Shown here: positions 117-44,397 of the stretch, piece after piece
How the letters are laid out: each line of letters starts with the position of its first letter
How positions within the stretch are numbered: position 1 is the first letter of the stretch
Virus record (IMG/VR): IMGVR_UViG_3300031965_000021
Coordinates: 3,175 to 67,174 of that record
Source: a virus
Lineage: Duplodnaviria > Caudoviricetes
Reading direction: 5' to 3' (one strand)
Length of the DNA: 64,000 nt
Notes under the pieces: model-generated
Database searches by the model: none
What the model saw: only the letters and a program-made list of their open reading frames with translations
Told to the model about the DNA's origin: nothing
Program-made: the position numbers and the translations under genes

Positions 117-287
117 TTAGTTAAGAGGTTTAATTTCATGGGTAAAAACCAACATGTTTCGCCCTTTATACTCAACGATAACATCATGATTTTTTACAAC
201 AAGGACAGTCATGGTTTTTTCTTGTTTGTAAAAACCTAAAAACCCTTTCCCAACATACTCAACTTTTTGGTTCTTTTTAAATTTCAT
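117..287 (-). CDS. hypothetical protein, 56 aa (not in ORF track)
   Basis: Manual translation MKFKKNQKVEYVGKGF...EIKPLN*, AGGAG RBS upstream. Confidence 0.7.
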   Translation of the reverse strand: MKFKKNQKVEYVGKGFLGFYKQEKTMTVLVVKNHDVIVEYKGRNMLVFTHEIKPLN

Positions 288-329
288 GGCTTGTTCTCCT
301 TACCCGGCTGTTACACCGGGCTGGTTGGT

Positions 330-593
330 TTACCACCCTTTTGTAATTGTTTCGGGATTTATGCTTTTTATATTCCCGTAATTTTCTTTTATCCAATCAA
401 GAGCACCTTTCTTAGAGTAACAATAATCTCCATACTCAGTACTAAAAGTCGTTACTTCTATTTCATTTTCTTTAGTCCAGATATCTATATCCCATTCAGT
501 GAACTTTGAGAACTTTTCATAATCCGAATCAAACTCTACTTTAAATACATGAAATCTTTTGGAGTCATCTTCCGTTTTATAAACATATCCCAT
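330..593 (-). CDS. hypothetical protein, 87 aa
   Basis: ORF with GAGGAG RBS; lies directly downstream of the hammerhead ribozyme. Confidence 0.8.
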   Translation of the reverse strand: MGYVYKTEDDSKRFHVFKVEFDSDYEKFSKFTEWDIDIWTKENEIEVTTFSTEYGDYCYSKKGALDWIKENYGNIKSINPETITKGW

Positions 594-609
594 TTTGTTC
601 TCCTCATTT

Positions 610-662
610 AGTGTTTCGGCCTGCTGGCCTCGTCAGTAAGTTTCGCTTTAAACTCAGACACT
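610..662 (-). ncRNA. type III hammerhead ribozyme
   Basis: Minus strand AGUGU-C^UGAGUUU-AAAGCG-AAACUUA-CUGACGA-GGCC-AGCA-GGCC-GAA-ACACU: full CUGANGA/GAAA core, GUC cleavage triplet, three paired stems. Confidence 0.9.
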
Positions 663-780
663 GTATCCCTTCGCTTAGTCAAGGGGCTAACTTCACCAGC
701 TTGACTTTTGGGCTTCTCGGTTAACTTCCGCCTTTGCTTCCGGTCTCTCTCCGGGTCAATCTCTCTCTTTCTTACTTAAT

Positions 781-809
781 AATATAATTCATCCAATAAA
801 ATATGTAAA
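781..809 (-). promoter_or_regulatory. sigma70-like promoter for leftward genes
   Basis: TTTACA-N17-TATATT on the minus strand, in AT-rich intergenic DNA. Confidence 0.55.
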
Positions 810-3820: not shown

Positions 3821-5328
3821 TGACAATTAAGAAAGCCAACAATTTTATAGAAGATTCGAACCGACAACCGCCCACAGACAACGTCAAGCAAGACCATATG
3901 GCTATTGCTGGTGTAGCTGGTGTTAAAATATCCACTGGCTTTGTCCACGACGAGTTCATTGTTAAACTGGTTGGGGAGAGGGGCAGACGAATCTACAGAG
4001 AGATGCGTGACAATGATGCTACTGTAGGAGCTATCCTGTTTGCTGTAGAAATGTTGTTAAGGGCTGCTAAGTGGAGAGTAGAGCCAAAAGAAGATGCCGA
4101 GATAGAAGATGCTGACACCAGCAATGAAGAGAAAGTGGTTGATATATCCGCTGGTATAAAAGATCACGATTCAGCTGTAGCGTTTGTTGAAGGGGTTCTG
4201 TTTAATGATATGTCCCATACCTGGGATGACTTTGTGGCCAATATCCTGACCATGCTCCCTTATGGCTGGCAATGGACAGAGGTATGTTACAAGAGACGAA
4301 ACGGCATAACAAATGATCAAAAAACAACATCTCTGTTTGATGATGGATTAATAGGTATATACAAGCTGGCTGACCGCTCCCAAGAAACACTTGATAGATG
4401 GGACATGGATGAATCCGGCTGTGTATTCGGTATGTGGCAGGAAGGGCCAAATGGAGGTAACCTTCGCTATATTCCTATGGAAAAGAGCCTGCACTTCAGG
4501 CCACACCCTTTTAAAGATTCCCCTGAGGGCCGTAGTGTTCTCCGTGCTGCTTATCGCTCTTGGTACTTTCTGAAGAACATCCAGGAAATTGAGGCGATTG
4601 CTATAGAGAGAGAGTTGAACGGTCTTCCTGTTGTGTATATCCCCTCTGCTATTCTTAATGGTACTTCTACAGAAGCCAAGGCAGCTGTTGAGACATATAA
4701 AAAGATGGTTAGGGATGTTAAATTTAATGAACAGGGCGGAATCGTCCTGCCTTCTGACCCTTTTTATAATAGTGAGGGTGATCCCGGTACTGTAAGACAA
4801 GTTGAGTTTGCTCTGGTAAATGCCAATGGAACAAGAGCTGTTGATACAGACAAGGTCATTAAGCGATACCAGGGAGATATAGCTAGAACCATTCTCGCTC
4901 AGTTTATCCTAATGAGCCAATCAGGAAGTAAGGGTGGATATGCTCAATCAGAAAACGAAACAGATATTTTCCTAAGGGCTGCAGAAGGGTGGCTTGAGTC
5001 AATAGCAGCAACAATCAACAGACAACTTATCCCTAAACTCTGGCAATTGAATGGATTAGATCAAGAGTATATGCCACATGTAGTTCCTGGCCAACTCAAG
5101 CCGGAGAATTTAGGCATACTTGGTGATTTTATCCAAAAACTATCTGGTGCTGGATTAATGTTCACTGATATTGATACAGAGAATCATTTGAGAGAGCTGG
5201 CTGGACTGCCTGCTGTAAGTGAAGAGACAAGGGATGAAATAAACTTTGACGACGAGCCAATTAACCCTGACCTGACTAAACCAATTAACGCCAAACTAAA
5301 CACTGGGTTGATTGAGGAAGAAGAATAG
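3820..5328 (+). CDS. portal protein (DUF935 / Mu gp29-like)
   Basis: Position after terL; YREMRDND, PEGRSVLR.AY..W, IERELNG.P motifs. Confidence 0.9.
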   Translation: MTIKKANNFIEDSNRQPPTDNVKQDHMAIAGVAGVKISTGFVHDEFIVKLVGERGRRIYREMRDNDATVGAILFAVEMLLRAAKWRVEPKEDAEIEDADTSNEEKVVDISAGIKDHDSAVAFVEGVLFNDMSHTWDDFVANILTMLPYGWQWTEVCYKRRNGITNDQKTTSLFDDGLIGIYKLADRSQETLDRWDMDESGCVFGMWQEGPNGGNLRYIPMEKSLHFRPHPFKDSPEGRSVLRAAYRSWYFLKNIQEIEAIAIERELNGLPVVYIPSAILNGTSTEAKAAVETYKKMVRDVKFNEQGGIVLPSDPFYNSEGDPGTVRQVEFALVNANGTRAVDTDKVIKRYQGDIARTILAQFILMSQSGSKGGYAQSENETDIFLRAAEGWLESIAATINRQLIPKLWQLNGLDQEYMPHVVPGQLKPENLGILGDFIQKLSGAGLMFTDIDTENHLRELAGLPAVSEETRDEINFDDEPINPDLTKPINAKLNTGLIEEEE

Positions 5329-44232: not shown

Positions 44233-44397
44233 TGCAAGAGGCAGGATTCGAACCCGCAATTATCATATGCTAATTATAGAGGGTTTTCATTACTCGGCGC
44301 CAGTCAAGCTACCCGTACAACAGCGGCCATCTCTGCCCTCCGGACTCCTGTTCATTACTAACCGATCTATAGCGTCTACCAATTCCGCCACTCTTGC
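44233..44397 (-). ncRNA. tRNA-like RNA A: Leu-type body with 85-nt insert replacing anticodon loop (165 nt)
   Basis: Acceptor GCAAGAG/CTCTTGC+A73; D arm GCG-GAATTGGTAGA-CGC; stem ATAGA/TCTAT; long variable hairpin; T arm GCGGG-TTCGAAT-CCTGC. Confidence 0.75.

Follow-up and report, generated by a model that had tools for sequence, protein, structure and literature searches.

The stretch of DNA analysed here, referred to below as the window, covers 64 kb (bases 3175-67174) of an IMG/VR phage record. The record is complete at 67,174 bp and has terminal repeats of 127 bp; the window represents nearly all of the 67-kb genome of an uncultured tailed phage. Rightward from position 1019 lie the genes for the small terminase (PF16677), the large terminase and the portal protein. 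Leftward from position 593 lie, in order, ORFans of 87 and 56 aa, a Zn-ribbon protein, a DenV-type pyrimidine-dimer glycosylase/endonuclease V (PF03013), further ORFans and a helicase. The interval between these two gene sets carries, on the minus strand, a type III hammerhead ribozyme together with a candidate promoter, a leader and a Shine-Dalgarno (SD) sequence (Table 1).

Table 1. Features of the ribozyme locus, in window coordinates
Feature	Position	Strand	Remarks
Candidate sigma-70-type promoter	781-809	(-)	TTTACA, 17 nt, TATATT; 10/12 consensus matches
Leader	663-775	(-)	non-coding, 69% purine; would be the 5' fragment after cleavage
Type III hammerhead ribozyme	610-662	(-)	complete core, three helices, GUC site
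Stem III	662-658 with 614-610	(-)	5 bp, including the A15.1-U16.1 pair
C17	657	(-)	predicted cut 3' of C657
Stem I	656-650 with 643-637	(-)	7 bp, one G-U
Loop 1	649-644	(-)	6 nt
Core CUGACGA	636-630	(-)	
Stem II	629-626 with 621-618	(-)	4 bp, GC pairs only
Loop 2	625-622	(-)	tetraloop
GAAA	617-614	(-)	A614 pairs with U658
Spacer	591-609	(-)	single-stranded; SD GAGGAG 605-600, ATG 593-591
First gene after the ribozyme	330-593	(-)	87-aa ORFan
Hairpin-plus-SD joint	284-329	(-)	between gene 330-593 and gene 117-287; not a hammerhead

Since the minus strand has no gene upstream of the ribozyme, the leftward promoter must be located within 594-1018. This interval contains one sigma-70-like candidate (809-781). 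The ribozyme thus belongs to a 5' leader, with transcription likely to start about 120 nt upstream of it. The first-pass annotation, made from the sequence before this analysis, had designated the same site as the promoter. The site exists, and its -35 hexamer and position are kept in three related contigs (L002, L003 and L133, described below), but sigma-70-like sites are no commoner in the window than in shuffled sequence and it is treated here as a candidate. The leader ends, just before the cut site, in a weak 5-bp hairpin (685-667).

The ribozyme ends 16 bases before the start of gene 330-593, and 12 unpaired nucleotides separate the stem II hairpin from the SD. The hammerhead thus occupies the leader ahead of the ribosome-binding site of this gene, as had been annotated, with SD and ATG directly downstream. 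The SD is predicted to be mostly unpaired both before and after cleavage; unmasking of the SD by cleavage was considered and rejected on this ground. SD sequences precede 36 of the 57 long ORFs of the phage, against a background of 34%. The 87-aa product of gene 330-593 has no Pfam or PHROG match and no IMG/VR relative by pattern search. The joint that follows this gene consists of its stop codon, a 5-bp GC hairpin and a further SD. A terminator-like match on the plus strand (622-638) was also rejected: it is the complement of the ribozyme stems, and no plus-strand gene reads into it.

A blastn search of GenBank phages with positions 1-1100 of the window gave no match. The best named relatives of the large terminase (TerL), from Croceibacter and Cellulophaga phages, are about 43% identical and too distant for a comparison of the locus, and a TerL search of bacterial genomes gave no prophage relative.

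Elsewhere in the window, a tRNA-like gene occupies 44233-44397(-). It scores 37.1 bits with the Rfam tRNA model; its D arm is of the Leu type and its variable arm is long. The region of the anticodon loop is interrupted by an insert of about 84 nt, with the 9-mer AGTAATGAA near each end of the insert. ARAGORN makes no call at this gene, and no intron or ribozyme family gave a match at E<=0.05.

Structure and statistical support of the hammerhead

Every element described in the first-pass annotation, namely the whole hammerhead core, stems I, II and III of 7, 4 and 5 bp and the GUC triplet, was found in place, and reading of the minus strand predicts the same cut, between 657 and 656. All core bases of the Rfam family Hammerhead_3 (RF00008) are present: CUGANGA, GAAA, A15.1-U16.1 and H at position 17 (C657). 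The pairs flanking the core are all standard: U656-A637 (1.1-2.1), G629-C618 (10.1-11.1) and A614-U658 (15.1-16.1). The acceptance rules of Perreault et al., which concern the core bases and the core-adjacent pairs, are likewise all passed. The topology is that of type III, with loops closing stems I and II and stem III open to the flanking RNA. Stem I is AU-rich. The hammerhead fold has a predicted energy of -12.7 kcal/mol, against -13.8 kcal/mol for the minimum free energy structure, a gap of 1.1 kcal/mol. Fast cutting at cellular Mg2+ depends on a tertiary contact between loops 1 and 2; the two loops could form at most 2 bp with each other (GC/GC), as read from the sequence alone.

An Infernal search with Rfam hammerhead models, which had been proposed as a check, aligned RF00008 end to end with 608-664(-). 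The E-value is 1.5e-7 locally and 3.1e-5 when calculated for the whole window. The score, 40.1 bits, lies below the gathering score of 48.5 bits, which is a curation cut-off and not a structural criterion. At gathering thresholds the Rfam search of the window reported no hammerhead, and the RF00008 match appears only when E-value thresholds are used. It is the sole match to this family in the 67-kb genome, so that the ribozyme is present in a single copy.

Two further searches support the identification. A loose type III descriptor, specifying the core with stem I of at least 4 bp and stems II and III of at least 3 bp each, was applied to both strands of the window and gave one match, 610-662(-); it gave none in 300 dinucleotide-preserving shuffles of the window. 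A covariance model, R1, was built from 14 type III hammerheads of unrelated phages, none of them from the lineage of the window. Because MAFFT alignments of the hammerheads, with their unequal loop lengths, were not structural, R1 was built from a gap-free subset instead. It scores the site at 49 bits (E about 1e-13), with no other match in the window, and about half of this score is not independent, since the seeds were collected with the window's own core-plus-stem II pattern. As the seeds share stem II by construction, the independent evidence is limited to stem I, stem III and the cleavage triplet.

The module in close relatives and in other phages

L002 and L003 are IMG/VR contigs found by a TerL search, with 99% TerL identity to the window; L133 was found by scanning for the stem III-SD string. 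In L004 and L005, TerL relatives at a greater distance, the short contigs contain no hammerhead. The ribozyme is 98% identical to those of L002 and L133, the single difference falling at the free position 7, and the SD spacer (591-609) is 95% identical to theirs and 95-100% identical across the relatives, though the coding sequence behind it differs. The leader, in contrast, is only 40-46% alignable to L002 and L133. The leaders of the window and of L002 (about 4690-4820(-)) are unrelated in sequence, yet both are 69-72% purine.

Behind the ATG the coding sequence of L002 and L133 is unrelated to that of the window, small genes of their own replacing gene 330-593, and blastn homology ends at the start codon of this gene to resume at its stop codon. 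The hairpin-plus-SD joint is 94-96% identical in L002 (4126-4172) and L003 (4122-4170), while the gene before it differs; judging from these alignments, it is the downstream boundary of a swapped cassette. The question raised in the first-pass annotation, whether related phages keep the ribozyme at this gene, thus has a divided answer: ribozyme and SD are kept at the locus, but the gene behind them is not.

A second hammerhead, variant B, lies one small gene further down in L002 and L133. It is also detected by R1. Variant B keeps all the core bases, stem III and the SD spacer of variant A, the form found in the window. Its stem I is shorter, and one extra U lies between A9 and stem II. Both loops differ from those of variant A, and each contains the self-complementary UGCA, again a reading of primary sequence. 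Within the stems, two of the differences are compensatory (A-U to U-A at 1.3-2.3 and G-C to A-U at 10.2-11.2) and a third replaces G-U by A-U (1.2-2.2). Variant A precedes three unrelated genes, of 87 aa in the window and of 59 and 58 aa in L002 and L133, and variant B precedes two, of 85 and 54 aa. The compensatory changes between the two variants, and the maintenance of the module before differing genes, indicate that what selection maintains is the fold of the RNA and the ribozyme-SD unit, and not the genes next to them.

L003 has variant B only, joined directly to the leader that L003 shares with L002 and L133 (L003 4443-4680(-)). Recombination between two hammerheads, at their identical 5' parts, would account for this arrangement through loss of the variant A cassette.

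The Rfam alignment, the phage model, the shuffle test and the conservation with compensatory changes together carry the identification. The assignment of 610-662(-) as a genuine and complete type III hammerhead ribozyme, with predicted activity, holds.

The hammerhead also belongs to a wider class. A search pattern consisting of the core plus stem II of the window, with 19 specified bases and no selection for context, matched at least 120 IMG/VR contigs, but only 31 sites in bacterial and archaeal genomes totalling 596 Gb. Among the IMG/VR matches listed, type I and type III are about equally numerous, and some of the contigs contain more than one copy (two or three). An SD and a start codon lie within 80 nt downstream of 44 of the 49 distinct type III copies among the matches listed, and within 30 nt in 40 of them, with a median of 21; a GC-rich hairpin precedes 32 of these 49, and the genes downstream mostly encode proteins of 50-145 aa. 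Pairing is maintained throughout this class. In a model-fitted alignment of 50 distinct phage type III hammerheads from the matches listed, pairing is found in 96.3% of cells; the corresponding values are 66.5% for shuffles and 24-43% with slid partners. Double changes occur in 11 of its 15 pairs, among them all six of stem I and three of stem III.

Clusters of copies are found in some contigs unrelated to the window. L047 and L068 each carry three type III hammerheads within 0.5-3 kb, and L036, L048 and L116 carry two each over the same range; in these contigs every copy stands before an SD and a start codon, often directly after a GC-rich hairpin. Among the 31 matches in bacterial genomes, 11 are located on separate short contigs of one Dysgonomonas MAG, GLO_MAG_00070 (L136, L138, L143, L148, L155, L161-L163, L165, L166), which points to an element present in several copies or to foreign DNA in the bin.

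Predicted role of the ribozyme in the leftward operon

The position of the hammerhead between a variable leader and a conserved SD leads us to infer, with a probability of about 0.6, that it trims the leader of the leftward operon to give a standard, hairpin-capped mRNA with a 5'-OH end. Transcription would start at a promoter about 120 nt upstream of the ribozyme, and the RNA would cut itself co-transcriptionally after C657. The purine-rich variable leader would depart with a 2',3'-cyclic phosphate, and the remaining mRNA would begin with a 5'-OH nucleotide that takes part in the first pair of stem I. Downstream of this first hairpin would come that of stem II and then, after some 12 unpaired nucleotides, the SD with the start codon behind it. 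Such a 5' end would be poorly attacked by decay pathways that need a 5'-monophosphate or a single-stranded 5' end; Bouvet and Belasco are said to have found that mRNAs whose 5' terminus is base-paired are protected from RNase E. Since cleavage would leave a fixed and structured 5' end, any gene behind the module would obtain the same 5' UTR, whatever lies upstream. An mRNA with a 5'-OH end protected by hairpins had been proposed in the first-pass annotation. The proposal fits both the anatomy of the locus and the recurrent order of hammerhead, SD and start codon in other phages, with cleavage itself a predicted step.

In the relatives with two modules, cleavage may moreover part neighbouring cistrons, detaching the upstream cistron with its 3' hairpin. 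In L002 (4354-4689(-)) and L133 (5266-5598(-)), one gene of 58-59 aa has a hammerhead on either side, and the stem III strands of the two ribozymes are identical. Double cleavage there would free a one-gene RNA of about 280 nt, whose 3' end could pair over 8 bp with the stem III 3' strand of the first ribozyme and so rebuild a hammerhead. Ligation of this RNA into a circular one-gene mRNA is conceivable. Perreault et al. sought circular products elsewhere and detected none (PMC3088659).

The module may alternatively act mainly at the DNA level, as a homology block for swapping, gaining or losing small accessory genes, with RNA cleavage secondary or vestigial. Short blocks of homology of the appropriate kind are present, one formed by the roughly 70 bp of hammerhead plus SD and the other by the hairpin joint further downstream; homology breaks exactly at start and stop codons; the same variant stands before unrelated genes (three for variant A, in the window, L002 and L133, and two for variant B); and the fusion of leader and variant B in L003 is the product expected from a deletion between identical hammerhead 5' parts. 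However, every catalytic nucleotide is intact, which a pure homology block would not need, and the compensatory changes keep stems I and II paired between variants A and B, as pairing is kept across the class. As a principal function this is unlikely. A role as recombination joint beside RNA cleavage is more likely, the two being compatible. The two could also be combined, the hammerhead plus SD serving as a portable gene-cassette joint that provides both a homology block for exchange and a natural 5'-UTR insulator for incoming genes, a proposal that we regard as rather improbable in this full form.

Leader trimming might also have the opposite effect on expression. Cleavage would then lower it or make it conditional, either through faster decay of the 5'-OH mRNA by RNase J or through slow cutting modulated by Mg2+, temperature or a factor, thereby throttling early genes that are potentially toxic. 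In hosts with RNase J, the 5'-OH end produced by the glmS ribozyme can speed decay (PMC3997798), and regulated cleavage was raised by Perreault et al. for phage hammerheads (PMC3088659). The AU-rich stem I and the short loops may slow the copy in the window. On the other hand, the 5' end of the product would be paired from its first nucleotide, which would hinder 5' exonucleases, and the ribozyme has no ligand-binding or sensor extension. The same layout before many different genes argues for a generic rather than a gene-specific role, and down-tuning of expression seems rather unlikely.

The first-pass annotation had offered, as its other possibility, the release of the leader of about 120 nt as a separate RNA. 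The purpose of cleavage would then be to produce a functional small RNA of about 118 nt ending in a 2',3'-cyclic phosphate; the leader is indeed non-coding, 69% purine and provided with a small hairpin just before the cut. This possibility is weakened by the poor alignment of the leader in close relatives (40-46%) in which the ribozyme is 98% identical. The leader, moreover, matches no Rfam family and folds no better than its shuffles (z -0.23), making such a role very unlikely. Least credible of all is a chance look-alike, or a dead relic without catalytic activity, for although the Rfam score is under the gathering threshold, this would have to be reconciled with the empty shuffles, the R1 E-value, the island of conservation with its compensatory variants in the relatives, and full agreement with the rules of Perreault et al.

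Comparison with known hammerhead systems

The catalytic core of the window hammerhead is that of the type III ribozymes of RF00008, a family of Rfam clan CL00010 (C3 U4 G5 A6 N7 G8 A9, G12 A13 A14, A15.1-U16.1 and C17). Its loop 1 (6 nt) and its tetraloop 2 are shorter than in the model consensus, and its setting is the mRNA leader of a DNA phage, not the transcript of a viroid, satellite or repeat.

Prophage hammerheads flank single genes and cleave both in vitro and in E. coli; Perreault et al. (2011) proposed that they process long transcripts into gene-length mRNAs (PMC3088659). In the haloviruses HF1/HF2, a hammerhead lies 13 nt before the start codon of a helicase gene, and the mapped 5' end of the transcript is at most 3 nt from the cut (PMC3088659). 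The window copy resembles these phage and prophage examples in lying between genes, on the coding strand of a tailed phage, where it heads an early-type operon and is followed within a few nucleotides by a start codon. It is of type III with a canonical core, whereas many of the prophage examples are of type II and that of HF1/HF2 is a core variant. The clustered arrangements described by these authors have a counterpart in L002 and L133, where two ribozymes bracket one small gene (58-59 aa), but not in the genome of the window with its one copy. Compared with the published examples, the ribozyme and SD of the window form a fixed module before interchangeable ORFans.

A mechanistic likeness, as distinct from membership, links the module to the engineered insulator RiboJ, in which a hammerhead is placed before the ribosome-binding site to normalise 5' UTRs and the uncleaved mRNA is taken to decay faster (PMC7536230). 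In both cases the hammerhead stands between the promoter or leader and the ribosome-binding site, and the cut drops, or here would drop, the upstream context and leaves a hairpin-capped 5' UTR. The module of the window is natural and lacks the extra 23-nt hairpin that follows the ribozyme in RiboJ; insulation is attributed to it by analogy.

Hammerheads adjacent to phage genes have been known since 2011 (PMC3088659), and the window copy is a clean but ordinary example. Somewhat new is the possibility of a circularisable one-gene RNA in the two-copy relatives, as is the presence of one ribozyme-SD module before five different small genes in four near-identical phages, with one or two copies per phage, which amounts to a natural experiment. 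The window copy itself is a compact, canonical hammerhead in a complete genome.
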